Of a stretch of 64,000 nt of DNA, positions 16,510-49,344 are shown piece by piece. The notes under the pieces were generated by a model. That model made no database searches and was not told where the DNA came from. It was given only the letters and a program-made list of their open reading frames with translations. A program made the translations under genes and the position numbers. Source of the stretch: an uncultured Gammaproteobacteria bacterium. Its GTDB lineage: Bacteria; Patescibacteriota; Patescibacteriia; SG8-24. Within the stretch, counting starts at the first letter, position 1; each line of letters starts with the position of its first letter. Location: contig CAZBFO010000003.1 in assembly GCA_964491475.1 (NCBI GenBank), positions 253,293 to 317,292 on the forward strand, written 5' to 3'.

Positions 16510-16666
16510 CGGGAATCTCCAGTTTCTTCGGTAGAAAGGACGTCGGTCAGACCTCACCACAAAAGAGGGCCTTGGTCAATCCTGACGGCCTCGCACTCTT
16601 GATTTTTCGGCCAAATGTGCTACGGTCGCGGCAGGTTCGCTCACAACGCAAGTAAAGGAGAGAAGG

Positions 16667-18841: not shown

Positions 18842-18955
18842 ACTGATTGAGGATAACTGTGCGTGGCTGTCAGCGCGAATGAAAGACGCGCTGATTTTTT
18901 GAGCGAAACGAGCATAATAAAATCAAGCATTTTACGGAGTAATCCACATCACCTT

Positions 18956-18985
18956 TTGGAGGTGGAAGGGGTCTTGCTCTATAAT
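18956..18985 (+). promoter_or_regulatory. candidate promoter of the giant surface-protein gene (-35 TTGGAG, 18-nt spacer, -10 TATAAT)
   Basis: TTGGAG at 18956-18961 and TATAAT at 18980-18985, about 30 nt upstream of the ATG at 19016. Confidence 0.35.
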
Positions 18986-19015
18986 AGGCGTGTACTCATT
19001 TTTCGCGCCAAGTTC

Positions 19016-31000: not shown

Positions 31001-34000
31001 GTCACCACCACTTCCTCCGGCACCGCCACGCTCTTCAACACCAACGCCACCACGCTGAACGCGGGCGGCGCGGCCACCACGGTCAATGTCGGCATCGCCG
31101 GAGCCAGCGGCACCATGGCCCTGATGGGCGGCTCCGGCTCCACCGGCTGCACCGTCGACGGATCGAACGGCAACTTCACTTGCTCCGGCACAATCACCAG
31201 CACCGCCACCTCCGGCAACCTCGGCTGGTGGAACCGCACGGGCACGACGCTCTCGCCGGTCAACGCCGGCGACAACGTCACCACCACAGGCAACGTCAGC
31301 ACGACCAGCTCGGGCACTATCACTTCGGCCGGTACTTTGACGGCCAGCAACGGCTTCACCCAGACCACCGGAGCCACCAGCGTCACCGGCACCTCCGGCT
31401 CGATCGCGCTCACCGGCTTCGGTTCCACCGCGATCACCAGCACCACCGCCACGGGCAACGTCTTCAACCTTGCTGACACCAGCCTGACCACCGGCACCGG
31501 CTTCCGCTCGGCCACCACCAGCACCGCCACCACCAATACGGCCTTCTCGGCCAACGTCTTCGCGGCCACCTTCGCCCAGGCGACGGCAGCCAACACCTCC
31601 GGCGTCAACGGCCTCGACGTGCAGTGGACCCAGAACCCGACCGTCGCCGGCAACACCAATGAGTCGATGCTGCGCCTGCAGAACCAGCTCGTGAACAGCA
31701 CCACCGACACCAGCGTGGCCAACGGCCTGCTGATCGACAACGCAGACACTTCGGCCACCGGTTCGACGGCCATCACCAACGCCATCAACATCTCCCAGTC
31801 CGGCGGCCTCGCCACGACCGCGGCGTACACCAACTACCTGAACGCCACCAACTGGTCGGTGACCAGCGCGGGCGCGGAGACGCTCGCCTCCGACCTGGCG
31901 GTGAACGGCGGCAACCTCACCTCGTCCGCCACCACCTTCAACCTGCTCAACTCGGGCGTCACCACGCTGAACGAGGGCGGCGCTGCCACCACCGTGGCGA
32001 TCGGCATCGCGGGAGCTTCCGGCACCATGGACCTGATGGGCGGCAGCGGCAGCACCGGCTGCACGATCAACGGCTCCAACGGCAACCTGACCTGCAGCGG
32101 CACCATTTCCGGCACTTTCGCCGTGAAGTGGAGCGACCTGCAGAACCCGACGGCCAACGAGTCGCTGGCGATGGGCGCCAACACTTCGACCTTCACCTAT
32201 AACGCCACCACCGGCGCCGGCGTCAACCTCTACACCCTGGTCGACACCGCCTCGAACACCGGCACCGGCTACATCCTGTCGGCAGAAACGGCGGCCAGCT
32301 CGGCGGCCAAGCCGTTCCGGGTCGTCGCTCGCGCCAACACCATCATCGACACCACCTCCACCGGAGGCGTGACCATCGGTAACGCCACCGCAGCGCAGGC
32401 CGTGACCGTCGACGCGGGCACTGCCACGCTCAACTTCGGCAACTCCAACAACGCCAGGGCCATCAACATCGGCACCGGCACCGCCGTGGACACCATCCAC
32501 ATCGGCGACGGCGGCACGGGCGCCGACGTCATCACCATCGGTTCGAACGTCGCCGGACAGACTTTGGCGCTCGACGCCGGCACCGGCGCCGCGGCCATCA
32601 CCATCGGCAACAGCGCCACCGCCCATGGCATCCAGATCGGCACCGGCGCTGCCGTCCAGACCATCTCGATCGGCTCGACCAATTCGACCTCGGCCACCAC
32701 CGTCAGCGCCGGATCGGGCAACTTGGCCCTGACCGCCACCTCCGGCGGCGTCAACCTGTCGACGACCACCAGCGGCACCATCAACTTCCAGCCGCTCGGC
32801 TCGGGCACCACCGGCATCGTTCAGGTGGGCGCGGGCGGCGCAGGTTCCACCACGCCTGACCTCCTGGCTGTCGACGTGAAGTCGAACGCCGGCGACCCGG
32901 CCACCACCCAGAACGGCTACATGTACTACAACGGCAGCACCAACAAGTTCCGCTGCTACGAGAACGGCGCCTGGAAGGACTGCGACACCAACACCGGTTC
33001 CGCGCCGCGCCTCGACCAGATCATCGCCGCGACCGCCGCCAACACCATCGCCAACGCCAACTTCGCCCAGACTTGGAACTGGGGCACGCTCACGACCCAG
33101 ACCGCCATGACCTTCGGCGGCGGCTCGGCCATGACCACGGGCTCGGTGTTCAACTTGAGCGGCGGCACCTACGTTCACACCGGCACTGTCACCGAGACCG
33201 GCAGCTTGGCCACCTTGAACGTGACCGACTCTTCCTCAAATACGGGCGGCAACCCGGTGACCAACGGCCTGCTGATCACGCCGACGTTCAGCACTACTGC
33301 CAGCGCCGGCACCAAGGTGCTTAACGGCCTCAAGGTCGATCCGACCCTGACCTCCTGCGGTACCACCGCTGGCACCTGCACCTTGAGCGACATCGTGGCC
33401 AACACGCCGGCGCTGACGCAGACCACCACCAACACGATGAACATCAACGCCCTGCAGCTGCCGACGGCGGGCGCGCTGGTGCAGAACACGGCGGCCGGCA
33501 CCATCAACTGGAACGGCCTGACCATGCAGATGCCGAACATCACCCAGACCACCGGCACGGTCACCTCGACCGGCGTGAAGGTCACTGGCGGCACGGTCAC
33601 CTCCGGCACCTCGTATGCCTTCGTTTCGGACAGCAACGCCGGCAACGTAGGCGTCGGCACGCTTACGCCGACGCGCACTTTGGACGTGAACGGCAACATG
33701 GGCGGCAGTTCCGTCACTAGCGCCCAATCGCTGACCAGCACGCAGACGGTGACCGTCTCGACCAAGGCGGTGGCCTTCTACCTGTCCGAAGACTCCACCA
33801 CCACGAACTCCGACGTCGACATCACCTTCAATCTGACCGGCCTGCCCGACGTGGACGGCACCTACGCCTTCTTCTACCTGTCGGCCAAGAAGGGCGTGAC
33901 CACCAACGCGCACCTCACCACCGTCGATGTCAGCATCAACGGCAACGCCATCACCAACGCCCTGGTGAAGAGCTCCACCGCGACCGTCGCCTCGACCATC

Positions 34001-35683
34001 GACCGCAATTTCACCCTCGTCCGCATGAACGGCGCCTGGAGGCTCATCGGTTCGAGCGGCGACGGCACCGGCGGCGTCGGCTCCGGTTCGATTATCAAGT
34101 ACAAGTCCGCTGACCAAAGCAGCGTCACCACGACGCTGGCCAATGACTCCGACATGTTCTGGAACATCGGCGCCAACGAGAACTGGTCGGGATTCTTCGC
34201 TGTCCAAGTATTCTCCAACTCGAACAGCCCTGACTTGAACGTCGCCATCACCGCCCCGTCCGGCGCGACTTGCGACATGAGCTACACGCTTCTGAATACG
34301 CCCTCATCCGGAGCGCAGGCCAATCTGGGTTGCGGCACGCGCTCCGCGCAGATCGCTCTCGGCGCCAACACCGAAAACATCCTCTTCATCAGCGCCAACA
34401 TCAGCAACGGCAGTACTGCCGGCTCGGTCAACCTGCAGTTCTCGCAGGACACCGTTGACGCCACCCATGCGACCATCTTCCGACAGGGTTCCTACACCAA
34501 CGCCTTCCGCTCCACCGGCGCGGACGTCGCCGAAGCCTATTACACCGCCGACAGCAGCATGAATGCCGGCGACGTGGTCGCGCTCGATCCGTCGTTCCGC
34601 GCCGGCGTCCGCAAGACCGCCTCGGCCTACGATGCCGGAACCCTCGGCGTCATCACTAGCATGCCCGGACTGGCGCTTAGCGATCCGCTGCGTCCGCAAC
34701 CGGCCGGTACCCGCACCGTCTTCATGGCCCTTAACGGCCGCGTGCCGGTGAAGGTCAGCGACGAGAGCGGCCCGATTGCCGCCGGTGACTTCCTTGCCGC
34801 GTCTTCGACGCCCGGCGTGGCCATGAAGGCCGCCAAGGCCGGACCGGTCATCGGTCGCGCCCTCACGGACTGGGCCGGCACCGGTACGGGAAGCGTCGAC
34901 ATGATCATCTCGCCCGCGCAGCAGAACGCCATCGTGACGCGCGCTGCCGACCCGACCAAGACCGCCGACCAGATCAACTCGGACATCCTGGCCGCCGTTT
35001 CCGCGCAGACCTACGCGCCCGACCAGAGCACCACCGAGCTGAACGTCGACCGCGTGGTCGCCGGCCTGTCAATCATCTCCGACAAGGGCATCTTCAACGG
35101 CCTGACGGTCGACTCCATCGGTTCGCTGCATGACGCCATCACCCTGGCCTCGGATGCGGTCTTCATCGGCCGCCCGTACTTCAACAGCGACACTGCCGGC
35201 TTTGCGGTCATCACCCCCGGCGACAGCAGCGTCAACGTGACCTTCGACAAGCCCTACGAGACGACTCCCGTGGTCAGCGCCACCTTGTCCTTCGACGGCG
35301 ACGCGCCGAGCGACTGGCAGAACATCCGCTACGTGGTCACCGACAAGTCGGTCAACGGCTTCACCATCCGGATGTACCAGCCGATCGGCCAGGACGTGAA
35401 GTTCAGCTGGATCGCGCTGGCGGTAAAGGACGCGCGCACCGCAAAGTCGACTGGCACGACCGCTTCAGTCAGCGTGCCTGCTCCGAGCGGCACGCCGGCG
35501 GGGGATACGGGCACCGGCGACTCCGGCTCGTTCTCCTCGACGACGACCTCTGACGCAGCTCCTTCGAGCGATGCTTCGTCGTCCGATGCCGGCGCGGCGA
35601 GCGCGCCGGCAGATACGGGCGCCGCTGCGCCCACGTCCGATGCTCCTGCATCCGACGCGTCTGCGCCGAGCGCGACCAACTGA
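19016..35683 (+). CDS. giant secreted repeat protein (about 5,555 aa) with tail-fibre-like Thr/Ser/Gly beta repeats and a C-terminal H-type-lectin-like module
   Basis: Single uninterrupted 16.7-kb reading frame. Signal peptide MHFWRNIFRKLLSLAIGVSFVFFGLASAANA. Dozens of reiterated modules: …LDLSTQTTG.I.LTTQV(S/T)GVLPIANGGTNN…, …ADLTAARTWTLPNASGTFAVSASAPISLSAAGNISC(S/P)TC…, …TGRGA(S/T)TSTA…GGATVRGLTVDSATAT…ILTSIA…. A module NP(S/T)FT.VT…NIGN…T(T)NI(Y/F)GTL.L.G.F.P.VDNTY(E/D)LG…LRWKDVWVGPGSYKLSSTTG recurs three times. The C-terminal part contains NGYMYYNGSTNKFRCYENGAWKDC and ends with VNVTFDKPYETTPVVSATLSFDGD…NGFTIRMYQPIG…SWIALAV followed by an acidic Ala/Ser/Pro-rich tail. Confidence 0.85.
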   Translation: MHFWRNIFRKLLSLAIGVSFVFFGLASAANAAVGVPKILSHQGRLLDASQNLLGGAGTNYCFRFSLYDDAAVGGPDVQLWPAGAPSTMTVNVKNGVYNVGVGDVAAGGDLLDYDFQSGDAAYLNIEVANSVAGSCVGVISFENLSPRQRVMSAGYAINSDTVDGFHAKQSADGNFIPALTSGNLILGATNPQINSTGANALVLQGGAATGDVQFFSSLNKLTSAGDLTVAGTVTNAGVIINGATTDIKTGANEDLALDASGTGNIVFVGVDCSGYANGGKLTTNASGVVTCANDDSTSGGGTVTSIDGSGGTTGLTFSGGPVTTSGTLTLGGTLGAANGGTGLTSFTVGDILYASGPTTFSKLGIGSAGQVLKVAGGIPTWGTDNNTTYTAGTGISISLGNVISNTGVVSEADTLATVTGRGATTSTASSFNGGASVRGLTVDSATVTNDKILVSITTVGGASFNGTITNADLTAARTYTLPDVTGTFIVTGSAAGGDLTGTYPNPTIAADAVALGTDTTGNYVATVSGGGPISVSGTGEGAAVTVSCPTCLVTGGSLWTLAASAGSDSTISQGDTATFAAGSSKVTTTNDGAGTVSIDVAEANLNLNNIGGSLDLSTQTTGTISLTTQVTGVLPIANGGTNGSSFTTNTLTYFDGTSIVSTGINPSSVVTTTNVSSNAVTSVTAGNGLTGGGGPGAITVHVGAGNGIAVAANDVSVAVTSSGTTATTSSNSGIESTSTGIRLLGGCTGGEILKWNSGTSTWDCSADSTAGTLTARETDGSPSLAATTIEFGPTSSSDDEFVVTNEGSGVARVRTGTKIPRTDVAATVTGGWTFNSATSFTSTVDASGATFLGATPLIFEGGTVDAFKTAFNITDPTASNTITFPDASGTVAVSASGPISLSAAGNISCPTCLVSGSSLWTSAGDVGSFAVSQGGTATFAGGLGIDTSAAGSTVTIAVDESALDLANIGGFLDLSTQTTGTISLTTQVSGVLPIANGGTNNTSFTANRLTYFDGTKIASTSIDPANVLVSGGSLYTLAATSGSNSTISQGGTATIAAGTDISTTGNGSGTVTIADTSTLSSVTGRGASTSTAVSLNGGATVRGLTVDSATATEDRILTSIAATGAARFDGTITNADLTAARTWTLPNASGTFAVSASAPISLSAAGNVSCPTCLTSGSTVFTLAATSGSSQALASGDTITIAAGSNVTTTAGATDTVTVAVVSNPTFTTVTATDVDNAATLNLGASSTTVNIGNPSSTTNIYGTLSLAGDFAPSVDNTYELGTASLRWKDVWVGPGSYKLSSTAGNSGSGTDYTLGSLSFSGTDLVLKSDVVGLGTQGSLRLTTASNYGVVVGPSGEVSVGFGGSNLGAGIVHTDAFGVLSSSALDLTAEVGTSVLPIANGGTNNTSFTANRLTYFDGTKIASTTINPANVLLSGGSLFTAAATSGSNSTILQGGTLTLAAGTDISTTGSGSGTVTVADTSTLASVTGRGATTSTAITLTGGATISGGVDLSSAILAGTNPLVFDGTTVDANTTALSFVDPTGTNVITFPDASGYVLLSGGNLFTLAGSSGSNSTINQGGTATVAGASGRVSATGNGSGTVTIDVIESGLSLASMGGSLDLTTQVSGVLPIANGGSNSSGPFVTGELLSFDGSSFVSSGISAASVVTSGTAAGGDLTGFYPNPTVAANAVALGTDTTGNYVATVAGSGPISVAGSGGESANVTVSCPTCVTTSSSNVWTLSGSTGTSTAIGYGDTATVAAGSSKVSSVGDGAGSVAIDVVEANLNLNNIGGSLDLSTQTTGQIDLTTQVTGVLPIANGGTNNTGFTTNRLVYFDGSQLTSTSINPTDVLLSGGSLFSTAGNSGTSTISQGGTLSILGGTDVTTTDDGSGNITVDDTSTLASVTGRGSSTSTAVSLNGGASVRGLTVDDVTATHDRILTSIAATGAVRFDGTITNADLTAARTWTLPNASGTFAVSASAPISLSAAGNISCSTCLVSGGSLFSSLGDTGTSSISQGGSLKIAGGSNITTSDNGAGIITVATSANPSFTSVTSDTFDSSSTTLNLGPTNATTINIGNGGSTTNIFGTLVLDGGFNPAVDNTYDLGSPALRWKTVYVGPGSYHLTSTTGTSGSGANYTDGSLAFGGTNLKLATAAVGTGAIGSLQLTTGSNAGVNVDSTGKVGVGTASPTALLSVGSASDFTVDNSGNVTASGDAAVNGGNLTTTASTGNLFSTNATTVNLGDAADTVNLAGGSGSTGCTIDLNGNFSCTGSVTGGGTVGGSGAQYHTAVWASANTLADVGPGTAGQLLISQGGSAYPAYTTVSGDATINGSGVLTISANAVALGTDTTGNYVASVSATGPISISGTPGEGWTPNVSCPTCVTTSSTGVWTLSGSTGSSTSINYGDTATVAAGSSKVSAVGSGTGSVAIDVVEANLNLNSIGGSLDLSTQTTGFLSLTTQVTGVLPIANGGTNNTSFTTNRLTYFDGTKIASTAIDPSTVLVSGSALFNSAGDTGTSSVSQGDTLTFVGGTDVSTADDGARNVTINDISTLATVTGRGATTSTAVTLTGGATVRGLTVDSSTATNDKILTSITTVGAASFNGTITNADLTAARTWTLPNASGTFAVSASAPISLSAAGNISCSTCVTTGGSLFTLAGSTGSNSTISQGGTATIAAGSSKVTAAGNGTGTVSIDVVEANLNLNNIGGSLDLSTQTTGTIDLTTQVSGVLPIANGGSNADGTGYTANRLLAFDGTSFVTTSINPANVLLSGGSLFTSQGDSGSSTISQGGTLKVAGGTDVTTSDSGSGVITVNDSSTLASVTGRGASTSTASSFNGGATVRGLTVDSATATEDRILTSVAATGAARFDGTITNADLTAARTWTLPNASGTFAVSASAPIALSAAGNISCSTCVTTATTLFNFAGTSGSASTITSGGTATVTAGTNMTTTGSGGSGSGAVTVAVVANPSFTSVTSDTFDSSSTTLNLGPTNATTINIGNGGSTTNIYGTLSLAGDFSPSVDNTYELGAEQLRWKDVWVGPGSYKLSSTTGTSGSGTDYTLGSLSFGGTNMVLKTEAVGAGVTGSVQVTTGSNVGLNVDSTGKVGINTASPSAAFAVGTGSPFTVDNSGNVITSGNATVNGDTALGDAATDGITLTGEVRGASPIRFEGATNDNTYTTIAVVDPTASRTINLPNASGTFAVSASAPLSLSAAGNLTCSTCVTTSSTGVWTLAGSTGSSTSINYGDTATVAAGSSKVSAVGSGSGSVAIDVVEANLNLANIGGSLDLTTQVTGVLPIANGGTNNTSFTTNRLTYFDGTSIASTTINPSNVLLSGGSLFTAAATSGSSSTISQGGTLTLAAGTDISTTGNGSGTVTVADTSTLATVTGRGATTSTAVSLTGGATVRGETIDTATATDDLIAVSVTAGGAARFTGTVTNADLTAARTWTLPNASGTFAVSASAPITLSAAGDIGCSTCLTTGSNIFTLAGTSGSNQTLTNGDTITIAAGTNITTTGGATDTVTVATVANPTFSTSVTTPSVDNGASGITIGSGSGTTTITSSNWGVSSAGAISGLTGISSSGTVTLTGLTASRFVTTDGSSNLTTSQNSAALSATLTDETGSGAAVFGTSPAITTSLTTGSASFDLLNATATTVNFAGAATTLAIGAATGTATVNNATVTLANATTVNVNGASPSIVTSSAGTASVFNTNATTLNMGGAATTVAIGVAGASGTMNLMGGSGSTGCTVDGSNGNLACSGTITSTATSGNIGWWNRTGTTLSPSNSGDNVTTSGNVSTTGSGTITSAALLTASNGFTQTTGATNVTGTSGSIALTGFGSTSITSTNSGSNAFSLSDSALTTASLASLTSTNNSAANTAWSADVFNVTNAQGTTAVSTGSIAGVDVQFTQGTTVAGNNDTALRVNLAQNNSSSTDATLSSLVSLANNDTATGNQITVTDGLNIAGANVTNGINLSGTFGTNLITSSNFSVTQAGLVTTADDIAVNGADVTTTSSGTATLFNTNATTLNAGGAATTVNVGIAGASGTMALMGGSGSTGCTVDGSNGNFTCSGTITSTATSGNLGWWNRTGTTLSPVNAGDNVTTTGNVSTTSSGTITSAGTLTASNGFTQTTGATSVTGTSGSIALTGFGSTAITSTTATGNVFNLADTSLTTGTGFRSATTSTATTNTAFSANVFAATFAQATAANTSGVNGLDVQWTQNPTVAGNTNESMLRLQNQLVNSTTDTSVANGLLIDNADTSATGSTAITNAINISQSGGLATTAAYTNYLNATNWSVTSAGAETLASDLAVNGGNLTSSATTFNLLNSGVTTLNEGGAATTVAIGIAGASGTMDLMGGSGSTGCTINGSNGNLTCSGTISGTFAVKWSDLQNPTANESLAMGANTSTFTYNATTGAGVNLYTLVDTASNTGTGYILSAETAASSAAKPFRVVARANTIIDTTSTGGVTIGNATAAQAVTVDAGTATLNFGNSNNARAINIGTGTAVDTIHIGDGGTGADVITIGSNVAGQTLALDAGTGAAAITIGNSATAHGIQIGTGAAVQTISIGSTNSTSATTVSAGSGNLALTATSGGVNLSTTTSGTINFQPLGSGTTGIVQVGAGGAGSTTPDLLAVDVKSNAGDPATTQNGYMYYNGSTNKFRCYENGAWKDCDTNTGSAPRLDQIIAATAANTIANANFAQTWNWGTLTTQTAMTFGGGSAMTTGSVFNLSGGTYVHTGTVTETGSLATLNVTDSSSNTGGNPVTNGLLITPTFSTTASAGTKVLNGLKVDPTLTSCGTTAGTCTLSDIVANTPALTQTTTNTMNINALQLPTAGALVQNTAAGTINWNGLTMQMPNITQTTGTVTSTGVKVTGGTVTSGTSYAFVSDSNAGNVGVGTLTPTRTLDVNGNMGGSSVTSAQSLTSTQTVTVSTKAVAFYLSEDSTTTNSDVDITFNLTGLPDVDGTYAFFYLSAKKGVTTNAHLTTVDVSINGNAITNALVKSSTATVASTIDRNFTLVRMNGAWRLIGSSGDGTGGVGSGSIIKYKSADQSSVTTTLANDSDMFWNIGANENWSGFFAVQVFSNSNSPDLNVAITAPSGATCDMSYTLLNTPSSGAQANLGCGTRSAQIALGANTENILFISANISNGSTAGSVNLQFSQDTVDATHATIFRQGSYTNAFRSTGADVAEAYYTADSSMNAGDVVALDPSFRAGVRKTASAYDAGTLGVITSMPGLALSDPLRPQPAGTRTVFMALNGRVPVKVSDESGPIAAGDFLAASSTPGVAMKAAKAGPVIGRALTDWAGTGTGSVDMIISPAQQNAIVTRAADPTKTADQINSDILAAVSAQTYAPDQSTTELNVDRVVAGLSIISDKGIFNGLTVDSIGSLHDAITLASDAVFIGRPYFNSDTAGFAVITPGDSSVNVTFDKPYETTPVVSATLSFDGDAPSDWQNIRYVVTDKSVNGFTIRMYQPIGQDVKFSWIALAVKDARTAKSTGTTASVSVPAPSGTPAGDTGTGDSGSFSSTTTSDAAPSSDASSSDAGAASAPADTGAAAPTSDAPASDASAPSATN
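22680..29650 (+). repeat. mosaic coding super-repeats (about 2.5-2.8 kb units built from shorter ~0.6-0.7 kb modules) within the giant gene, with long near-identical DNA stretches
   Basis: For example, 25150-25270 and 27905-28025 are almost identical (…CACCTCGGTCAC(T/C)TCCGACACCTTCGACAGCTC…ACCATCAACATCGGCAACGGCGGATCGACCACCAACATCT…). GCCGACCTGACCGCAGCCCGCACCTGGACGCTCCCGAACGCCAGCGGCACCTTCGCGGTGTCG recurs at about 22425, 24885, 26826, 27625 and 29305. Boundaries are approximate. Confidence 0.6.
30110..32100 (+). repeat. second coding repeat family (three ~0.9-kb units) within the giant gene
   Basis: ATTLN.GGAATTV.IG.AGASGTM.LMGGSGSTGCT(V/I)DGSNGN..CSGTI recurs at about 30115, 31045 and 31955 with identical DNA cores (GGCGGCTCCGGCTCCACCGGCTGCACCGTCGACGG). 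Boundaries are approximate. Confidence 0.55.
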
Positions 35684-35733: not shown

Positions 35734-36162
35734 ATGCTGAAACGTATGAAATCGGTCCTCAAGTACCTCGGGGCGAGCGCGGTCATCCTTCTCCTTGCCG
35801 GTTCGCTGGCCGAAAATGCGCTGCAGTACGGGCAAATCAAGGCGCTCAAGTCCGATCCGGCCTACACGGCCTCGAAGGAAACCGCGTCGCTCATCGCCGC
35901 TGTCGGCCGCCTGATGGTCCTGCCGGACGAGACGCCGACCATCGCCACGGTCGACGACATGGACAAGCTGAAGGGTCAGGCGTTCTTCGCCAACGCCAAG
36001 AAAGGGGACAAGGTGCTGATCTTCACGAACGCCAAGAAGGCCGTGCTGTACGACCCCGTAGCCGACAAGATCGTCGAGTCGGCGCCGCTCTCCGCCGCCA
36101 GCGCCCCGGCATCGGATGACTCGACCAAGACGGATACCTCCCAAAAAGACACTTCGCAGTAA
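35734..36162 (+). CDS. hypothetical small secreted/membrane-anchored protein
   Basis: 142 aa, starting about 50 nt after the giant-gene stop. N-terminal signal/anchor MLKRMKSVLKYLGASAVILLLAGSLA. Ends in an acidic, Ser/Thr-rich tail. Confidence 0.5.
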   Translation: MLKRMKSVLKYLGASAVILLLAGSLAENALQYGQIKALKSDPAYTASKETASLIAAVGRLMVLPDETPTIATVDDMDKLKGQAFFANAKKGDKVLIFTNAKKAVLYDPVADKIVESAPLSAASAPASDDSTKTDTSQKDTSQ

Positions 36163-36171
36163 GCAACGCCG

Positions 36172-38691
36172 TTGCATGCCACGACGATGACGACTTGGAA
36201 ACGCGCAATCCGGTTGCTGGGCGGAATCGCGCTTGCCGTCGCAATGACGGCGGGCGCGACGTCCGTTGCGTTTGCCGACAATTACTCCAGCGCCAGCTTC
36301 ACCGTCAGCAACCCGGTCATCGACAACGGCGGGGGATTGTCGTCATCCGCGCACTTCCTGAACTATTCCAGTTTCGGACAGACCCAGTTCGAGGTGGAAT
36401 CCAGTTCCAACTTCATCGACTGCAACGGCTTCCTGTATTTCGAGTCGGCCAGCAAGCCCACGGTGACTTCGCTGACCGCCGGCAACGCCACGGTGACCCT
36501 GGGGTGGGCCACCTCTTTCGGCGTCTGCGGCAACGTCATCACCAAATACAAGATCGGCGTTTCCGGCGCCAGCGGCGGCCCGTACGTCTTCGGCGACGAG
36601 GTCGCCGGCAACGTGCTGACGTTTCCCAAGACCGGCCTCACCAACTGCACGCCCTACTACTTCGTGATCCAGGCGATTTCCGGCACTACGGTGCTGGCGA
36701 CTTCTGCCGAGGTCACCGGTACGCCTACCAATGGCAGCTGCAGCGGAGGGGGCGGAGGAGGGGGCGGTGGCGGTGGCTGCGGCTTGAACTGCGGCGACCA
36801 CATCTGCTGCATCAATTACGAGAACACCGCCTCGTGCCCTTCGGACTGCCCGGCCCCGCCGCCGTCGCCACCGGCTCCGGTGGTTACGCCTCCCGGCCCG
36901 CAGTGCGTGCCGCAATGTTCAAGCGTGTCTTATGACTTGTACATCGTAGACCCCGACGGTACCGAACGTCACAGCGGCACTTCCTGGACGCATGACCGCG
37001 CTATCGACGCTAGCACCGTCGAGCACGCCTTTGAGGACAAGGGCAACGACTTCGACTACAACGACGTCATCGTCGACGTCAACAAGGCCGACTGCCACAC
37101 TTTGTCCGCCAAGGTGGTCAGCATCGACGCCGGCTGGCACCACCAGATCTGGTTCGCGCTGTACTACGACGGCGTCAAGAAGCGCACCGTGATGATTTCG
37201 CCGGACTCTCACCAGGCGGCCGGTTCGTCGCTAGTCATCGACGGCGGCACGCCCGACATGTGCGGCGGCTCCAACGCCCTGACCGTGGTGGTCAGCGGCC
37301 CGGACGGCAAGCCTGAACCCATCCGCGAGGGCGACCTGATCAAGGCCGACCAGGACACCGTCTACTACTACGGCCGTGACGGCAAACGTCACCCTTTCCC
37401 GCATTTCAAGATTTACGACAGCTGGTACGGAGACAAGTTCGCAGCAGTCAGGCATATCGCGCCGGCCGATTTGGCCACGATTCCGGTCGGTCCGAACGTG
37501 CTCTACCGCCCGGGCAGCCGCTTGGTAAAGCTGCTGACCGATCCCAAGGTGTACGCGGTCGCGGCACAAGGCGTCTTGCGCTGGGTCACCACCGGCGACG
37601 TCGCCACCTCGCTGTTCGGCACCAACTGGAAGCGCTTCGTCGAAGACCTGAACGACGCTTTCTTCAACGACTACGTCATCGGCGCGCCCATCAACGCCCC
37701 GGGCGAATACGGCGCCGCGTCGGACTACGCCAAGTACAAGAGCATCGACGACAACCAGAAGCTGCCGACGACCTCGCCGCCGCAGCTGCCGCCGGTCAGC
37801 TCGACGGTGCTGCCTGCCTGCACGGTCGCCTCGCCTTTCGAAAGCATCCTCGGCGTCGGGGTGACCGACCCGCAGGTGCAGACGCTGCAGCAGCTGCTGC
37901 AGTGCCTGGGCTTCTTTCCTGCTGCGGTTACGCCGAACGGCATTTACGGTGCGGCCACCGAATCGGCAGTGAAGGACTTTCAGGACGCCAACGGCCTCAA
38001 CGTGGTCGGTTTCCTCTCCAATGAGACCCGTTCGATGCTGAACCGTTTCGTCCTGCCGCCCAACTCTGAAGTGATTCCCGAGACGCCGGTTCCGGTTCCG
38101 ACGCCGGTTCCCGCGACGCCCGTGGCAGCGGCGCCAACGCCCACCTGCACGGCTTCCTCACCGACGACGCACTCCTTCGGTGCCGGCAGCACGGATTCGC
38201 AGGTGCTTCCTATGCAGCAGCTGCTGCGGTGCCTGGGCTTCTTCCCCAAGACGGTCGCGCCCAACGGCGTGATGGGCCCGACCACCGTGGCCTCGCTCAA
38301 GGCCTTCCAGACGGCCAACGGCCTGACGGCGACAGGCGCTACCAACGATGCCACCAACACCAAGCTCAACAGCTACATTCCGGGGACGCCGACCGGCAAC
38401 ACCACGACCACGGGTTCCGCGTCGAGTTCCGCGCCATCTCCGGCTCCGACGGCCTGCACGGCGTCCGTGACGTTCAACAAGCAGTTGCAGGCCGGGGACG
38501 AGGATCCGCAGGCGCTGGCGTTGCAGCAGCTGCTGCGGTGCCTGGGCTTCTTCCCCAAGACGGTCGCGCCCAACGGCGTGATGGGCCCGACCACCGTGGC
38601 CTCGCTCAAGGCCTTCCAGACGGCAAAGGGCATCTCGGCCACGGGCATCATCGGTCCGCTGACGCAGGCGGCACTGAACGCCTACCGTTAA
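36172..38691 (+). CDS. secreted cell-wall-associated multidomain protein with three C-terminal peptidoglycan-binding (PG_binding_1-like) repeats
   Basis: Signal peptide …LLGGIALAVAMTAGATSVAFA. FN3-like beta region. Poly-Gly/Cys-rich segment CSGGGGGGGGGGGCGLNCGDHICC and a Pro-rich linker. GNDFDYNDVIVDV motif reminiscent of DUF4114. Three repeats of LQQLL(Q/R)CLGFFP…VAPNG.(Y/M)G..T…(V/L)KAFQ.ANGL. Starts 10 nt after the previous stop. Confidence 0.7.
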   Translation: MHATTMTTWKRAIRLLGGIALAVAMTAGATSVAFADNYSSASFTVSNPVIDNGGGLSSSAHFLNYSSFGQTQFEVESSSNFIDCNGFLYFESASKPTVTSLTAGNATVTLGWATSFGVCGNVITKYKIGVSGASGGPYVFGDEVAGNVLTFPKTGLTNCTPYYFVIQAISGTTVLATSAEVTGTPTNGSCSGGGGGGGGGGGCGLNCGDHICCINYENTASCPSDCPAPPPSPPAPVVTPPGPQCVPQCSSVSYDLYIVDPDGTERHSGTSWTHDRAIDASTVEHAFEDKGNDFDYNDVIVDVNKADCHTLSAKVVSIDAGWHHQIWFALYYDGVKKRTVMISPDSHQAAGSSLVIDGGTPDMCGGSNALTVVVSGPDGKPEPIREGDLIKADQDTVYYYGRDGKRHPFPHFKIYDSWYGDKFAAVRHIAPADLATIPVGPNVLYRPGSRLVKLLTDPKVYAVAAQGVLRWVTTGDVATSLFGTNWKRFVEDLNDAFFNDYVIGAPINAPGEYGAASDYAKYKSIDDNQKLPTTSPPQLPPVSSTVLPACTVASPFESILGVGVTDPQVQTLQQLLQCLGFFPAAVTPNGIYGAATESAVKDFQDANGLNVVGFLSNETRSMLNRFVLPPNSEVIPETPVPVPTPVPATPVAAAPTPTCTASSPTTHSFGAGSTDSQVLPMQQLLRCLGFFPKTVAPNGVMGPTTVASLKAFQTANGLTATGATNDATNTKLNSYIPGTPTGNTTTTGSASSSAPSPAPTACTASVTFNKQLQAGDEDPQALALQQLLRCLGFFPKTVAPNGVMGPTTVASLKAFQTAKGISATGIIGPLTQAALNAYR

Positions 38692-38761
38692 AAGCGCGGC
38701 GCTATGCCGGATGGTGCGGACCGTCCGGCATTTGCTATACTTCCCGTGGATAACAGGCCGC

Positions 38762-39493
38762 ATGGAGGCCGCTCCCCCAAGCAACATGCCAAAACTCCTC
38801 GAAATCATCGTGGTGCTCATCATTTCCACTTACACGGCAGTAATGGGCTATTCGTTCGGCGTGGTCACCGAGACTGACGCCTCCATTGCGACCTCGTTCA
38901 TGCGGCAGATCATGCATCGGCCGGGCGACACCTCCACCTACGCCACCCGCGATTGGAAGACTTGGAACGACGGCAGGTTCGATAACGCCGGCAAGACCTA
39001 CTCGGGATTCTCCGTCAAGTACCCGCGCGACTTCGAAGCGGTCCATGGAGAGGAGGCCAACGGTAATTTTGTCGGCAGGCCTTCGGTGAAGCTGTCCTTC
39101 CCTCGGGATGCCTACGCCACGCCCAAAACCAACTTCGGCGAGGCCTATATGACCATCAGCGTCGATGACGCCAAGGATGCCGTGCGGTCCTGCTACAATA
39201 ACCCCGACGCTGCCGCACCGGAAAAGACCCTTCAAAACGTGGTGACCGTGGCTGGCATCGGCTTCCATCGTGCCGAAGTACGTGACGCGGCCGCAGGCAA
39301 TCGCTATGATTCGCGCGTGTATCGCGTCTTGCGCGGTTCGCGCTGCTACGAAGCCGTGCTGACGGTCCATACCGGCGCCATCGGCAACTACGATCCCGGT
39401 ACCGTCGCCGAGTTCGACAAAGAGAAGGCGTTCTCCCTGCTGCAGAAGATGCTGACTACCTTCCAGTTCACCGACAAGGCGCCGACGCCCTAA
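38762..39493 (+). CDS. hypothetical secreted/membrane-anchored protein
   Basis: N-terminal transmembrane segment MPKLLEIIVVLIISTYTAVMGYSF. No recognisable domain. Start ambiguous (38762 or 38786). Confidence 0.45.
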   Translation: MEAAPPSNMPKLLEIIVVLIISTYTAVMGYSFGVVTETDASIATSFMRQIMHRPGDTSTYATRDWKTWNDGRFDNAGKTYSGFSVKYPRDFEAVHGEEANGNFVGRPSVKLSFPRDAYATPKTNFGEAYMTISVDDAKDAVRSCYNNPDAAAPEKTLQNVVTVAGIGFHRAEVRDAAAGNRYDSRVYRVLRGSRCYEAVLTVHTGAIGNYDPGTVAEFDKEKAFSLLQKMLTTFQFTDKAPTP

Positions 39494-39506: not shown

Positions 39507-40073
39507 ATGCAACCCACTTCTTCCGGAAACCGTATCGCCGTGTTCGGCGGAGGCTGCTTCTGGTGCACCGAGGCTGTCTTCAAGATGTTCCGCGGCGTCA
39601 TCGCCGTTTCGCCCGGTTATGCCGGCGGCACCGTGATGAATCCCACCTACGACCAGGTGTGCACCGGGCGCACCGGCCACGCCGAAGTCGTGCGCATCGA
39701 GTTCGATCCCGCGCTGGTCAGCTACGAGACCCTGTTGACGGTGTTCTTCGCCACCCACGACCCCACGACGCTCAATCGCCAGGGCAACGACATCGGCACG
39801 CAGTACCGTTCGTCCGTGTTCTATGCCGACGACGAGCAGGCGGCCCAGGCCAAGGCGTACATCGCCGCCTTGGAGCGCGAGTCGCCGGGCGGGGATCCCA
39901 TCGTGACCACGCTGGAGCCGCTCAATGCCTTTTATCCCGCCGAGGACTATCACCGCGACTATTACGCGCGCAACAAGGACGCGGGGTACTGCCAGGTAGT
40001 AATCAACCCCAAGCTCAAGAAGGTCAAGGAGAAGTTCGCCTCGCTGCTCGATGCCGCCGCTTCGGCGGAATAG
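39507..40073 (+). CDS. msrA: peptide methionine (S)-sulfoxide reductase MsrA
   Basis: Active-site signature AVFGGGCFWCTEAVF and conserved GHAEVVRIEFDP, YHQ(R)DYY. Confidence 0.85.
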   Translation: MQPTSSGNRIAVFGGGCFWCTEAVFKMFRGVIAVSPGYAGGTVMNPTYDQVCTGRTGHAEVVRIEFDPALVSYETLLTVFFATHDPTTLNRQGNDIGTQYRSSVFYADDEQAAQAKAYIAALERESPGGDPIVTTLEPLNAFYPAEDYHRDYYARNKDAGYCQVVINPKLKKVKEKFASLLDAAASAE

Positions 40074-40142
40074 CGCGGGTGATGCTGAAAAAGAAAACCG
40101 CTCGCCTTAGGCGAGCGGTTTTGCGTCGTGCGGCGAGACGCC

Positions 40143-43100
40143 TTACTTGGAAAGCGTCTGCGAGTCGGTGGGGACGACCTTCACGTAGCCGCCGTTGGCC
40201 CAGTCGGCACTGCTGGCGCCCACTGTGGCGTCGTGCGGCGAGGCGGACTGGTCTGACCAGACGAACTCGGAGTCGGTGCCGTCCACGGCGAACGGATAGT
40301 GGGCGGTGTCGCCGGCGACGGTCAAGGCGCCGGTGTCGAGCAGGGTGGCGCCGTCGTCGCCCAGCAGATGGCCGGTGACGGAGGAGCCGACGGATGCCGC
40401 GCCGACGTTCAGGCGGATGTCGTAGGTGCGCGAGGAGCCTGCCGCGACGGTTTCCTCGTTCGCCAGGCGAAGCACCAAGGTGCAGGTCGCGGCGGCACCG
40501 CAGGCGGTCAGCGCCGAGCTGCCGGCGAGATTGGACGAATCGCCGACGCGGCGCAGCTGCGAGTCGCCGTTGCTGATGTTGGTGATGGTTCCTGACGTGC
40601 CGTTGTTGACCAGCATCGCCAGCCCCTTGAGCGCCACGTCGCCGCCGCCGGCCGAGACGGTGAAGCGCATGGCCACGTTTTGGCCTGCCGTGAGCGTGGC
40701 GGTGGGCAGCGCCGCCAGGCTGACCGTAGGAACGGCCTTGCGGACGATCTTGGCGTTGCCGACCATGTCGCCGCCGATCGAAGTGATCAAGGTGGAGCTT
40801 CCGGCGGAAGCGCCGCGGATTTCGAGCGTGCCGGCGGTGTCCTTGAGGGTGGCCGTCACGGCGGAGCCGGTGGTCGCGCCGCTCGGGCCGACGGCGTTCA
40901 AGGTTCCCTTGACGGTCAGGTTCTTGGAGCTGTCTTTGGCGATGACGAAGCCGGTGATGCCGGAGAAGTCGGCGTTTCCGGAACCGTCGACCGAGACGGG
41001 GCCGGCGATCATCGTGCCGCCGTCGTAGAGGGAGAGGCTGCTGACGGCGTTGGGCGTGGCCACGTTGATGCGGGCCTTGGTCAGCTTGAGGTCTTCGTAT
41101 TGGGCGCTGAAGCGGAATTTGGCGAGCGTGACGCTGCTGGCCGACCCCAGCAGCAGGCCGGCGTCCGTTTCGGTCGAGCTGTCGGACGAGACGGCGGTGG
41201 TGACGGTGCCGCCGTCGGTCAGGCGCATGGCGGGTCCGTTGGCGGTGCCCGTGGCGGCGAGGGCGTTGCCGTCGGCATCGGTGGCGCTGACGTTGCCGCC
41301 GGTCAGCTGGAATGAGACGTCATCCGGGAGCGTGCCGGCGGCCATCGAGGAAGCGAGGTTGCCCCGGAGCTGCAAGGTGACGGTTTGGCCGGAAGGGACG
41401 ATCAGGTTGAGGGTGTCGAAGGTCAGGCTGCCGTCCGTGCCCGAGGCGGGGGACTTGGCGGCGCCGAGCTGCGTCGAGCCGTTCCAGAGCGTCACGGTCT
41501 GGACGTCGTCGGCAACGGAGGCGCAGCCTGCCGGCTCGCGGCCGTTGGAGAAAGCGCCGTTCGGGGCATTGGTGCAGACGCCGGAGTTGTCGCTGGAGTC
41601 GATACGTCCCTGCAGCTGGAGCGAGCTGATCGTCACCGGAGAGCCGTCGCCGGCCTTGAGCGAGAGGCCCATCAGCGCGACGCCCTGGCTGCCCTTCACG
41701 TACGATTGCGCCACCGGCGTCGAAGCGGCCGAAACCGCCAGCGTGGCCGGTGCCAGGCTGAACTGGTTGCCGGCGATGACGGAATCCGGGACGTAGTCGG
41801 ACGAGGTCAGGTCCTGGTTGGTGTCCACGTTCTTGATGGCCGAGGCGAGCGCGCTGAACTTGTTGAGCGAGACGCGGAGCTTGGACAGCGGGCCGAGAAT
41901 GGAGGCGTTGGCGACGTCGGCGACCACCTTGAAGGTGCGTGACTGGCCGGCCGGCAAAGTGAACGTTTCGGAGAAGTCGAGCGTGGCGGAAGCGGCACCG
42001 ACCAGGTAGCCCGTGGCACCGGTGACGTCCTTGGGACCCAGCACCGTGGTGCCGCTGGCCGTGTCGATGACTTTGATGTTGGTGATGCGGGGCGAGCTTA
42101 GCGAACCGTTATCGAGCGCACTGGCGCCGTCGCCGGAGACCGCCAGCTGGAGCTTGCGCACGTCCAATTTGGCGAGGGCCGACATGGTGAAGTTGAACAG
42201 CTCGACGCTTTTGGCGGCCGCGGCCAGGTTCTTGGAGGCCGGACCGTTGAACGAGGTGGTCAGCGTGCCGGACTCGATGCGGGTCGAAGAGCAATTGCCT
42301 GCGCCCAGCGCGCAGCTGTCGCCGTCGTACGATGCGCCGTTGGCGGTGGTGGTCACGACGGCCGAAGCGAAGCCGTACACGTGGCCGTAGGCGGCGACGT
42401 CGACCGGGTCGTCCACGTACGTGAAAATCGTTTCCGCGGTGCCGCCGCGCGATTCGGGGGCGATGTCGGCGTACAGGCTGAAAGTGCGGCTGTTGTTCTT
42501 TGTAAGCGTCACCGGGGTCGCCAGGACGAAGGTGGCACGGTCATAACGGTCGTATTTGGCGACGGTCGCGAGCGCGTTGCCGGCGCTCTCCAGCGACAGG
42601 TTGGAGAGCCTCTCGCGGGCGACGGAGCCGCCGTGGGTCAGGGCCAGCGAGGCGAAGTCCATGTCTTCGGTGCCGTCCAAAGTGAACTTGAACTCGCCGA
42701 TTTTCTGATGCTTGCCGCCGGAGACTACGTTGGAGAGCGGTGCCGGTCCCGACTTGTCGACGCTCAACAGGCCGCTGTTCGCCGGAGACATGGTGAAGAG
42801 GTTGCCGTGCAGCGGCAGGCCGCGGGCTGTCAGGTTGCCGCTCTTGAGGTCGATCAGGTCGAGCGCGTGCTGGTTGGAGCCGCCGAGGAAATAATTGAAG
42901 CCGGCGATGACCGACAGCACTTCGGTGGTTCCCGGCGCGACGTCCAAAATGACGCTGTTGAAGGCGGCGTCGTTGCTGGTGGAGTTGATGGTGACCATGC
43001 TGGTCAGGCGGTCGTAGCCGTGGAACAGGTACAGGCCGGCGATGTCGGTGTTGCCGCCGGCGCCGCGGCGATGAAGAGTGACCGAGGTGACGGCCGCCGT

Positions 43101-43763
43101 CGTTGAACCGGTGTTGGTGACGGCGATTTCCATCATCGACACGCCGATGCCGCCGACGAAGGTGTTCGAGGGGGGATTAGTCGGGGCGAGGGCGACCGAC
43201 AGCTTTCCGGATGAAGCGGCGGTTCCGCCGATGCCTCTGTCCGCGTTGATCGAGGCGGCCGCGGCCGAGGCCGAGGCGGGCGAGAAGTCAGCGGCGGCGC
43301 TCAAGTCCGAGCCCACGGAGTAGTTGGTGAAGAAGGCGTCTGGAACGTCGACGATTTTCTTGTTCCAGTCCGAGCCGTACAGCGCGGCCGCGATCGCCTC
43401 CGACGGCACCCAGCGCAGGGTGCAGTTGCGGTCGACGGCGTACACTTTGGGGTCAGTCGTAATTTTGACCATCAGCGCGCCTGGCTTCATGCAGACGTTG
43501 CCGCCGACAGTCATGGCGGCGAGCTCGGCATCAGTAAGGGTAGTGACAGCGGAAAAGTCCGCATACCAGGTCTTGTAGGTGGTCTGGTTCGGGAAGACGT
43601 AGCGCTTGCCGTCGGCGCCGACGTAATAGACGGCGGGTGTCGAGGCTTTGACCAGCGCGCCAGAAGACGCGCCCAAGGCGGCGAGCGGGGCGAACAGGGC
43701 AGAAAGAGACAGCGACCAGGCAATTGTCGCCGAGACGACCGCGGCGGTGAGGGATTTGCGCAT
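40143..43763 (-). CDS. large secreted Ser/Thr/Ala-rich surface protein (about 1,206 aa; adhesin or S-layer-like)
   Basis: Signal peptide MRKSLTAAVVSATIAWSLSLSALFAPLAALGASSG. Long beta-rich low-complexity region with repeated TLT/SVS/TVT tripeptide-type segments. Start placed at the internal ATG 43763. Confidence 0.6.
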   Translation of the reverse strand: MRKSLTAAVVSATIAWSLSLSALFAPLAALGASSGALVKASTPAVYYVGADGKRYVFPNQTTYKTWYADFSAVTTLTDAELAAMTVGGNVCMKPGALMVKITTDPKVYAVDRNCTLRWVPSEAIAAALYGSDWNKKIVDVPDAFFTNYSVGSDLSAAADFSPASASAAAASINADRGIGGTAASSGKLSVALAPTNPPSNTFVGGIGVSMMEIAVTNTGSTTAAVTSVTLHRRGAGGNTDIAGLYLFHGYDRLTSMVTINSTSNDAAFNSVILDVAPGTTEVLSVIAGFNYFLGGSNQHALDLIDLKSGNLTARGLPLHGNLFTMSPANSGLLSVDKSGPAPLSNVVSGGKHQKIGEFKFTLDGTEDMDFASLALTHGGSVARERLSNLSLESAGNALATVAKYDRYDRATFVLATPVTLTKNNSRTFSLYADIAPESRGGTAETIFTYVDDPVDVAAYGHVYGFASAVVTTTANGASYDGDSCALGAGNCSSTRIESGTLTTSFNGPASKNLAAAAKSVELFNFTMSALAKLDVRKLQLAVSGDGASALDNGSLSSPRITNIKVIDTASGTTVLGPKDVTGATGYLVGAASATLDFSETFTLPAGQSRTFKVVADVANASILGPLSKLRVSLNKFSALASAIKNVDTNQDLTSSDYVPDSVIAGNQFSLAPATLAVSAASTPVAQSYVKGSQGVALMGLSLKAGDGSPVTISSLQLQGRIDSSDNSGVCTNAPNGAFSNGREPAGCASVADDVQTVTLWNGSTQLGAAKSPASGTDGSLTFDTLNLIVPSGQTVTLQLRGNLASSMAAGTLPDDVSFQLTGGNVSATDADGNALAATGTANGPAMRLTDGGTVTTAVSSDSSTETDAGLLLGSASSVTLAKFRFSAQYEDLKLTKARINVATPNAVSSLSLYDGGTMIAGPVSVDGSGNADFSGITGFVIAKDSSKNLTVKGTLNAVGPSGATTGSAVTATLKDTAGTLEIRGASAGSSTLITSIGGDMVGNAKIVRKAVPTVSLAALPTATLTAGQNVAMRFTVSAGGGDVALKGLAMLVNNGTSGTITNISNGDSQLRRVGDSSNLAGSSALTACGAAATCTLVLRLANEETVAAGSSRTYDIRLNVGAASVGSSVTGHLLGDDGATLLDTGALTVAGDTAHYPFAVDGTDSEFVWSDQSASPHDATVGASSADWANGGYVKVVPTDSQTLSK

Positions 43764-43820
43764 GGGGATGCGGTTAAGAGATTCGTGGTCAGTATAGCAG
43801 TTTTTCCCGATGCCATGGGC

Positions 43821-43848
43821 AAAAAAAGCCCCCGTTATGCACGGGGGC
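43821..43848 (-). terminator. intrinsic terminator downstream of the minus-strand serine protease gene
   Basis: The minus strand reads GCCCCCGT-GCATA-ACGGGGGC followed by TTTTTTT (revcomp of 43821-43848). Confidence 0.45.
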
Positions 43849-43852
43849 GGTG

Positions 43853-49166: not shown

Positions 49167-49344
49167 GCGGCTTCCCCTGACTTTCCGTCAGGGGTTTTTG
49201 TTTGCGATCTTTTGCATGGCTGCGGCCAAATTGACAAAACCCCCCATTTGGCTCACCCTTCCCACGATGTTTGTGCAGGGGCTGTCCCTCCATAAACACG
49301 CCCTTTTCAGCAGGAAATCCTTCTCAATCAGAGGGGAGAGAACA

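Follow-up and report, generated by a model that had tools for sequence, protein, structure and literature searches.

Patescibacteria live attached to other microbes and have a cell wall without an outer membrane. We analyzed a 64-kb stretch of DNA (contig CAZBFO010000003.1, positions 253,293 to 317,292; hereafter the window) in which the gene for a giant tail-fibre-like protein is followed on the same strand by genes for a small protein and for a secreted protein of 839 amino acids (aa). The 839-aa protein is the main subject of this report. Its C-terminal half carries domains that should hold it in the wall, and we read the whole as a peptidoglycan-bound adaptor or tether linked to the giant fibre, a reading on which our confidence and our doubt are about equal.

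The closest described system is the Pam pilus of Candidate Phyla Radiation (CPR) bacteria, which comprises the pilins PamA and PamB and the anchor PamR (Troman et al., bioRxiv 2026, 10.64898/2026.03.03.709456). According to that preprint, a Pam pilin is built from an N-terminal sandwich of nine strands, a linker that supplies the donor strand and a truncated immunoglobulin (Ig) acceptor domain, the Pam chaperones are membrane-anchored, and PamR combines FnIII domains with an N-terminal strand and an anchor. A tail-fibre-like gene is conserved in pam neighbourhoods, and the preprint mentions neither peptidoglycan-binding nor dockerin variants nor a small membrane protein (10.64898/2026.03.03.709456). 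In a second relevant study, on the cultivated Saccharibacterium Southlakia epibionticum, transposon sequencing identified three essential envelope proteins (SEML1_0890, SEML1_0891 and SEML1_0315), namely an FN3 protein, a VCBS protein encoded next to it and a dockerin protein (PMC10633639).

The three genes of the present locus, followed by the parts of the 839-aa protein, are:

18863-35683, plus strand: giant tail-fibre-like surface protein of 5606 aa, with a conserved C-terminal region (the last ~430 structured residues)
35734-36162, plus strand: small protein of 142 aa with an N-terminal hydrophobic segment, a ~70-aa external domain and a low-complexity tail
36172-38691, plus strand: secreted multidomain protein of 839 aa (834 aa from the ATG at 36187)
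36172-36276, plus strand: signal peptide, aa 1-35, ending TSVAFA before a mature DNY start; the sole hydrophobic segment of the protein
36277-36729, plus strand: N-module, aa 36-186, a triple SSxxF beta motif and an FN3-like domain
36745-36903, plus strand: linker with poly-Gly (11 Gly, aa 192-202), the Cys-rich stretch CGLNCGDHICC...CPSDCP and a Pro-rich part
36904-37266, plus strand: DUF4114-type all-beta domain, aa 245-365, containing FEDKGNDFDYNDV and conserved Cys residues, with a putative Ca2+- or glycan-binding site
37324-37701, plus strand: YYG domain, aa 385-510, a duplicated ~60-aa beta-beta-beta-alpha unit
37849-38688, plus strand: three PG_binding_1 domains with Pro/Thr-rich linkers between them

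The strongest indication of how this protein is held comes from its C-terminus, where three peptidoglycan-binding repeats had been noted on first reading. Pfam finds PG_binding_1 (PF01471) there in three separate stretches, with E 2.7e-41 and a score of 140 bits (cutoff 23). The DNA copies lie at 37855-38010, 38182-38337 and 38491-38646; the second and third share 88% identity and encode the same core, LQQLLRCLGFFPKTVAPNGVMGPTTVASLKAFQTA, and by this degree of identity are a recent tandem duplication. A homolog that is 46% identical to the window protein, P0002, has two PG_binding_1 repeats only. Domains of this family usually accompany peptidoglycan hydrolases or wall-remodelling enzymes, and partial NCBIfam matches to SleB, peptidoglycan hydrolases, an S41 protease and an L,D-transpeptidase would agree with such an activity here. 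These matches are far under their cutoffs and do not extend beyond the PG_binding_1 repeats, and Pfam, NCBIfam and PDB profile searches turned up no catalytic domain. We therefore rejected an enzyme role, every hydrolase-type NCBIfam match being confined to the repeats, and consider it highly improbable that the protein hydrolyzes or remodels the wall.

Two further domains precede the repeats. The GNDFDYNDVIVDV motif that the initial annotation had pointed out is present and is part of a recurrent domain of ~120 aa with the signature FED[KS]GxD[FM]D[YF]NDV. A phmmer search of the full library recovered 120 representative proteins with this domain, 94 of them at E<1e-10, and it often occurs in 2-3 copies. 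Taken alone, the query domain reaches 17.1 bits (E 0.011) against DUF4114 (PF13448), below the cutoff of 27 and with only profile positions 63-83 covered, so that "DUF4114-like" describes it at the level of the motif only. The label gains weight from its relatives, as 37 of 43 homologous domains match DUF4114 and one of them, in P0178 (E 1.4e-43 to the query), passes the cutoff with 44.4 bits. By transitive homology the query domain is thus a divergent DUF4114 relative. Within the acidic motif FEDKGNDFDYNDV, D54 is invariant, and conservation is 90% or higher at F43, E44, D45, D49 and D51 (alignment A2, query-domain numbering). AlphaFold2 returned a confident all-beta model of the domain (pLDDT 92.8), for which Foldseek found nothing at E<1e-3 in PDB and BFVD. 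Searches of PDB profiles with the DUF4114-type, YYG and small-protein alignments gave only spurious short-motif matches (designed propellers, antibodies).

The YYG domain has no Pfam, NCBIfam or PDB sequence match. Two beta-beta-beta-alpha units are seen in its confident model (pLDDT 94.6); an internal duplication is supported by an hhalign comparison of the two halves, which gives E 6e-4. The domain occurs in ~30 other large surface proteins of Patescibacteria that are otherwise unrelated, an SGNH esterase among them, where it either adjoins the signal peptide or forms the C-terminal end. The top 11 PDB matches of a Foldseek search are all EccB (probability up to 0.97), but with E values of 0.008-0.4.

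A second YYG domain is encoded within the window. A convergent gene on the minus strand (40143-43856) specifies a secreted protein of 1237 aa in which YYG directly follows the signal peptide and precedes a long Ig-like, Thr-rich sequence. This YYG copy is 45% identical to aa 386-507 of the 839-aa protein, and the rest of the 1237-aa protein matches no Pfam or NCBIfam family save for a weak fn3_5 match. A possible role is that of an S-layer-like or other surface protein with YYG as its anchor.

The domains of the C-terminal half recur together elsewhere. Denoting the DUF4114-type domain as D, YYG as Y, PG_binding_1 as P and the N-module as N, we observed the combinations D-D-P, D-P, D-Y-P, D-Y and Y-D at the far C-terminal end of proteins that range from 200 to 3500 aa. 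PG_binding_1 is present in 39 of the 120 proteins with a DUF4114-type domain and YYG in 23, and P0002 is the only one in which the cassette is fused to an N-module. One cassette protein is annotated as a peptidoglycan-binding protein in a Patescibacteria metagenome-assembled genome (MAG). Because the cassette recurs at the C-termini of many diverse surface proteins, we read it as a reusable wall-targeting module. The initial annotation had proposed a role as wall anchor, and the triple PG_binding_1 array within so widely shared a cassette speaks for it: wall anchoring by the C-terminal half is well supported, and binding to peptidoglycan in vivo is predicted from the domains.

The DUF4114-type domain also invites a different reading, in which the protein is an autonomous wall-bound adhesin or lectin whose DUF4114-type domain, and perhaps N-module, binds glycans of a host or prey cell, with the synteny described below reflecting co-regulation only. 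DUF4114 is a candidate for Ca2+-dependent sugar binding in PilY1.1 of M. xanthus (PMC9109919) and was shown experimentally to be the mannose-binding domain of the Acanthamoeba MBP adhesin (PMC11934332). The acidic D-x-D-x-N-D motif is nearly invariant, N-module genes occur in many loci without a small or giant gene, and the essential FN3- and dockerin-containing envelope proteins of Southlakia have been proposed to target host glycans (PMC10633639). A C-terminal cassette of DUF4114-type, PG_binding_1 and YYG domains on very diverse proteins is, however, better explained by shared anchoring than by one specific host ligand, and the order of giant, small and N-module genes is kept across classes. 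We regard the autonomous adhesin as unlikely and favor the wall-bound tether.

At its other end the protein begins with a signal peptide, and the predicted cleavage after TSVAFA agrees with an Ala before the mature N-terminus that is nearly invariant across the N-module family. Neither a [LIV]PX[TSA]G (LPXTG) motif nor a C-terminal hydrophobic segment or membrane helix is present in the 839-aa protein. The FN3-like start noted in the initial annotation gains support from the family: the query alone reaches 20.6 bits against FN3 (PF00041), below the cutoff of 25, whereas orthologous N-modules reach 27.2 bits and pass, and FN3 structures, titin among them, are matched by the family profile with E values from 6e-22 to 1e-7. 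The N-module is 40-41% identical to that of P0033 and to that of a 453-aa protein of locus L003. Poly-Gly after the FN3 domain is a feature of the family; in the window protein it numbers 11 residues and not the 13 first counted. The Cys motif CGDxxC...(E/N)xxxxCPxDCP, for which no family match was obtained, stands between poly-Gly and the DUF4114-type domain in both the window protein and P0002, once in the former (aa 203-226, 36778-36850) and twice in the latter (aa ~200-250), and is likely a small disulfide-knotted spacer.

The N-module provides the link to Pam pili. NCBIfam models for Pam pilins include NF058581 (CPR_Pam_pilin_C) and NF058579. The N-module protein of a Saccharibacteria locus (L086) matches NF058581 over aa 185-336 with 70.5 bits against a cutoff of 55, and the adjoining protein is also above cutoff. 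Residues 34-186 of the window protein align with residues 26-177 of the L086 protein at 35% identity (E 4e-17). By this alignment the window N-module is homologous to the N-terminal domain of CPR_Pam_pilin_C proteins, its tie to the solved PamA and PamB structures passing through the NCBIfam model only.

This homology raises the question of whether the 839-aa protein could be a subunit (base, anchor or terminator) in a Pam-type donor-strand-exchange pilus encoded elsewhere, that is, a PamR-like proximal cap fixed to peptidoglycan instead of to the membrane. PamR too is described as FnIII domains with an N-terminal strand and an anchor, and in Saccharibacteria loci the small gene and an N-module pilin gene open an operon that contains a second Pam pilin. 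The remaining features of the window point the other way. The 839-aa protein has no NCBIfam Pam match, and an iterated search with the L086 pilin C-domain found no such domain in any frame of the window, where chaperone-like families were not found either. Where Pam pilins have a donor strand, the N-module is followed by the 11 Gly and the Cys/Pro linker and not by a strand of the IDPTITFSIS type seen in L086. The protein has one FN3-like domain, where PamR-type anchors have two, and lacks a C-terminal transmembrane (TM) or other hydrophobic segment; the equivalent module in another PG-binding locus, L001, likewise ends after the PG-binding gene. We rejected the 839-aa protein as a Pam pilin, since it shares the N-terminal domain only, has poly-Gly in place of the donor strand and lacks an acceptor domain, and we think a pilus-base role quite unlikely. 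The wall-bound tether thus remains our preferred reading, and gene order bears on it further.

Loci were fetched in two ways, through the small protein in genomes and, independently, through the N-module in metagenomes. Among the small-gene loci, the next same-strand gene carries an N-module in 45, and the ORF before the small gene shows homology to the conserved C-terminal region of the giant (~430 structured residues) in 32 of 85. When this set was filtered to the 60 loci with at least 1.5 kb of flank on both sides, an N-module gene was found downstream in 30, a giant with a homologous C-terminus upstream in 36, and both in 21. In the metagenome loci selected by N-module the small gene lies directly upstream in 30 of 52. 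On this evidence the order giant, small, N-module protein is conserved across distant classes of Patescibacteria.

What follows the N-module differs between loci. Thirty of the N-module genes found after a small gene encode Ig domains and a dockerin, six encode a Pam pilin C-domain, and three are of the PG-binding type (the window, L001 and L011). L092, with 55% identity, is a further locus of the PG-binding type and has the trio as well. The three loci outside the window share the N-D-Y(-P) variant, all keep the giant/small/N-module trio, and together with the window they are the only fetched loci with the PG-binding variant; L001 and L011 may be one species. SEML1_0890, SEML1_0891 and SEML1_0315 of Southlakia may represent the N-module, giant and dockerin-type families.

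Because the same N-module is elsewhere attached by Ig domains plus dockerin or by a Pam pilin C-domain, the C-terminal half of the window protein would be an interchangeable attachment device. The attachment device has been swapped in evolution while the N-module and its neighbors were kept, and it is from this that we infer contacts with partner proteins; contact of the N-module with the giant or the small protein, and tethering of the fibre, are suggested by synteny and domain logic. In the mechanism that we propose, the 839-aa protein would be exported by the Sec pathway and kept in the wall by non-covalent binding of its cassette to the cell's own peptidoglycan. The poly-Gly/Cys/Pro linker would free the N-module to engage both the giant, at its conserved C-terminal region, and the small membrane protein, and the 839-aa protein would in this manner act as wall-bound adaptor or tether for the giant fibre. 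A peptidoglycan wall is to be expected, as the window also encodes a class A penicillin-binding protein (PBP; 49198-51984), S41 peptidases, trypsin-like peptidases and MsrA.

Both proposed partners carry conserved regions of their own. The conserved C-terminal region of the giant gives a weak H-type lectin match (H_lectin, E 2.4e-4). The small protein has no Pfam, NCBIfam or PDB match, and its kinship to LytR_C, suggested by two precomputed annotations, was rejected when a profile search did not reproduce it. Its conserved core reads LP-DE-PTIATV ... Q-FF ... GDKVLI ... LYDP ... AP (alignment A1). The family counts at least 338 homologs (clusters), with relatives in at least 434 species-level genomes across the Patescibacteria. 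The protein had been taken for a small secreted one, and the N-terminal hydrophobic segment on which that view depended is indeed there. Since this single segment is 20-23 residues long throughout the family and is without a conserved cleavage motif, a bitopic, membrane-anchored protein is more likely than a secreted one.

Several observations weigh against the tether as we have drawn it. About half of the metagenome N-module genes have no small gene directly upstream, and the N-module can thus work away from it. The query scores for both FN3 (20.6 against 25 bits) and DUF4114 are under the Pfam cutoffs. The resemblance of YYG to EccB is weak (TM-score 0.32-0.38), and peptidoglycan binding by EccB itself is a hypothesis only (PMC4769845). 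The simple terminator scan missed the hairpin at 38704-38731, which we take below as the 3' end of the transcription unit, owing to its short T-tail. Finally, in ~42 fetched loci, dockerin-type loci included, two related families lie 3' of the small and N-module genes (e.g. L003 11817-13978 and L086 5279-7236), one of ~300 aa with a match to an OmpL47-type beta-barrel domain and one of 361-420 aa with a C-terminal hydrophobic region. These may be membrane-anchored chaperones like PamC and PamD, and if so, Pam-like systems extend to Paceibacteria-type lineages. The window has neither the ~300-aa OmpL47-like family nor the 361-420-aa family, and it has no pilin C-domain or dockerin, so the function of the canonical operon may not be transferable to it.

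The initial annotation held that all three genes downstream of the giant, separated by gaps of 10-50 nucleotides (nt), are likely co-transcribed with it. The list of open reading frames (ORFs) contains all three on the plus strand after the 5606-aa ORF, at 35734-36162 (142 aa), 36172-38691 (839 aa) and 38711-39493 (260 aa). GC content at third codon positions is 0.77-0.85 in all these ORFs, a strong coding signal in a sequence of 63% GC overall. The 839-aa ORF starts with TTG at 36172, and the NCBI protein model starts at the ATG of 36187, giving 834 aa. The giant and small genes are 50 nt apart, and the small and 839-aa genes are separated by 9 nt (TTG) or 24 nt (ATG), in keeping with close spacing, whereas the third gap is truly 94 nt with the start of the third gene (gene 3) at 38786. 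The likely boundaries of the unit are:

18040-18065, plus strand: intrinsic-terminator-like hairpin, 3' of the upstream oxidoreductase gene, with an 11-bp stem and the T-run tail TTTTTATTTT
~18066-18240: AT-rich intergenic stretch (~170 nt), unusual for a genome of 63% GC and directly 3' of the strong terminator
38704-38731, plus strand: hairpin with a 12-bp stem and a 4-nt loop, 13 nt 3' of the stop codon of the 839-aa gene

The AT-rich stretch contains the -10-like elements TGCTGTATACA and TTGCGATATATT and probably holds the promoter of the giant-gene unit, the terminator at 18040-18065 marking its 5' boundary. After 18066 come a gene for a 199-aa membrane protein (18242-18841) and then the giant gene. 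The terminator scan found no terminator-like site among the giant, small and 839-aa genes, and the hairpin at 38704-38731 is likely the 3' end of the unit that they form. By this reading, the small and 839-aa genes (35734-38691) are the last two of a transcription unit to which the giant gene also belongs. Co-transcription with the giant accordingly extends to the small and 839-aa genes and not to gene 3, which is set off by the hairpin and a promoter-like element of its own. Independent promoters and terminators between the genes had been named beforehand as the sign that would speak against a shared unit, and candidates for both occur at the junction of the 839-aa gene and gene 3 only.

The features of gene 3 are:

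38733-38741, plus strand: extended -10-like element TGCTATACT of gene 3, the sole exact match in the window
38786-39493, plus strand: gene 3, 235 aa from the corrected ATG, with an N-terminal membrane helix, outside the module

The start of gene 3 is placed at 38786 and not at 38711 because its homologs are 225-235 aa long; the ATG at 38711 falls inside the hairpin. No Pfam or NCBIfam family matches the protein. A close relative (L007 and L008) has no giant, small or 839-aa gene and carries the gene-3 ortholog directly 5' of msrA; there the upstream neighbor is a divergent gene, and the element CATTTGCTATACTT 5' of the ortholog is identical to that in the window. Since L007 keeps gene 3 and msrA without the giant block and CATTTGCTATACTT is identical, gene 3 forms a separate unit with msrA (39507-40073), ending at a bidirectional terminator (40094-40122). 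Gene 3 is also missing 3' of the 745-aa homolog of the 839-aa protein in L001. Its inclusion in a surface module with the giant, as first proposed, is therefore abandoned in view of its own element, its pairing with msrA in L007 and L008 and its absence from L001.

Locus L007 (GCA_023246195.1) has the same gene order as the window on either side, with SecA ... S41 peptidase, gene 3, msrA, a trypsin-like peptidase, PUA methyltransferase, TPR and PBP genes. It lacks the block of oxidoreductase, 199-aa, giant, small and 839-aa genes (window ~16.6-38.7 kb) as well as the 1237-aa gene (40.1-43.9 kb). By this comparison the giant block is an indel relative to L007, and large surface-protein genes are strain- or species-variable.

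The 199-aa protein (239/199 aa) has two TM segments and no Pfam or NCBIfam family, and its only homologs (L009 10731-11306 and L010 7418-7993) lie directly 3' of a gene-3 homolog and not next to giants; the gene was therefore rejected as a member of the module. Thus the 199-aa gene and gene 3, which stand on either side of the giant block in the window, are neighbors in L009 and L010.

Other observations concern the wider locus. Two tandem paralogous S41 peptidase genes (CtpB-like, PDZ-containing) lie on the minus strand at 13928-15199 and 15310-16560, where L007 has one. Rfam and tRNA scans of the window gave no matches. Homologs of the window genes are annotated as Patescibacteria (Uhrbacteria, Parcubacteria, others). 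Some contigs with the Patescibacteria-specific arrangement of small, N-module and giant genes bear Vicinamibacterales, Gammaproteobacteria, Planctomycetia, Nitrospira or Acutalibacteraceae MAG labels (L011, L017, L032, L042, L043, L047, L056 and others), which probably reflect mis-binning or mislabelling.

Surface proteins with PG_binding_1 and the Pam system are already known. In the sources searched, a pilin N-domain fused to a PG-binding cassette, a cassette with YYG and a phylum-wide small membrane protein opening these operons are undescribed. More generally, Patescibacteria might own a modular non-covalent wall cassette (DUF4114-type, YYG and PG_binding_1 domains) equivalent to SLH, CWB2 or LysM, together with a core of small protein and N-module that couples giant tail-fibre-like proteins to the envelope; we offer this generalization tentatively and hold it to be doubtful, if arguable. 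If it is true, the N-terminal domain of Pam pilins is an autonomous interaction module that can be polymerised through a pilin C-domain, docked through a dockerin or fixed on peptidoglycan. One pilin-like head on three alternative attachment devices yields a testable hypothesis for fibre tethering, and the recurrent C-terminal cassette could predict surface localisation of CPR proteins. The locus also draws attention to two very widespread uncharacterised families, the small membrane protein and the YYG domain, and extends the description of the Pam pilus to lineages and architectures (dockerin, PG-binding) absent from the 2026 preprint (10.64898/2026.03.03.709456).

Compared with known systems, the locus shares parts with several. 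The EccB repeat domains of ESX type VII secretion, which are PlyCB-like, resemble YYG in their short repeated beta/alpha units and envelope location and differ from it in showing no sequence similarity and a weak superposition (E 0.008-0.4, TM-score 0.32-0.38). With the DUF4114 lectin-like domains of the PilY1.1 N-terminus and Acanthamoeba MBP the window domain has in common the acidic ED...D-x-D-x-N-D motif at the same profile positions; unlike the 85-position Pfam model, the window family spans ~120 aa, has its own N-terminal CxxDC...YDLYIVNPDGTER part and matches no solved structure. Repeated C-terminal wall-binding domains are also the device of Gram-positive non-covalent wall modules, such as PG_binding_1 in SleB-type enzymes and, by analogy, LysM, SLH and CWB2, but the window protein is without an enzyme domain and its cassette adds DUF4114-type and YYG domains that are seemingly specific to Patescibacteria.

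Closer still is the Pam system, with which the locus shares a homologous N-terminal beta-sandwich, Sec export and an adjoining tail-fibre-like giant gene, and the 839-aa protein is like PamR in concept, combining an FN3-type domain with an attachment device. It differs in attaching by PG_binding_1, DUF4114-type and YYG domains and not by a membrane helix, in a window without pilin- or chaperone-like genes. The nearest counterparts are the dockerin-type N-module proteins (~430-455 aa), which consist of a signal peptide, N-module, poly-Gly, Big_6 Ig domains and a type I dockerin. Neither dockerin nor Big_6 has a Pfam match in the 839-aa protein, and an iterated dockerin search of the window found none. 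The two types have the same N-module (40-55% identity), the same poly-Gly and the same position directly after the small and giant genes, and where the one carries Ig domains and a dockerin, the window protein carries a Cys-rich linker, DUF4114-type and YYG domains and a triple PG_binding_1 array.

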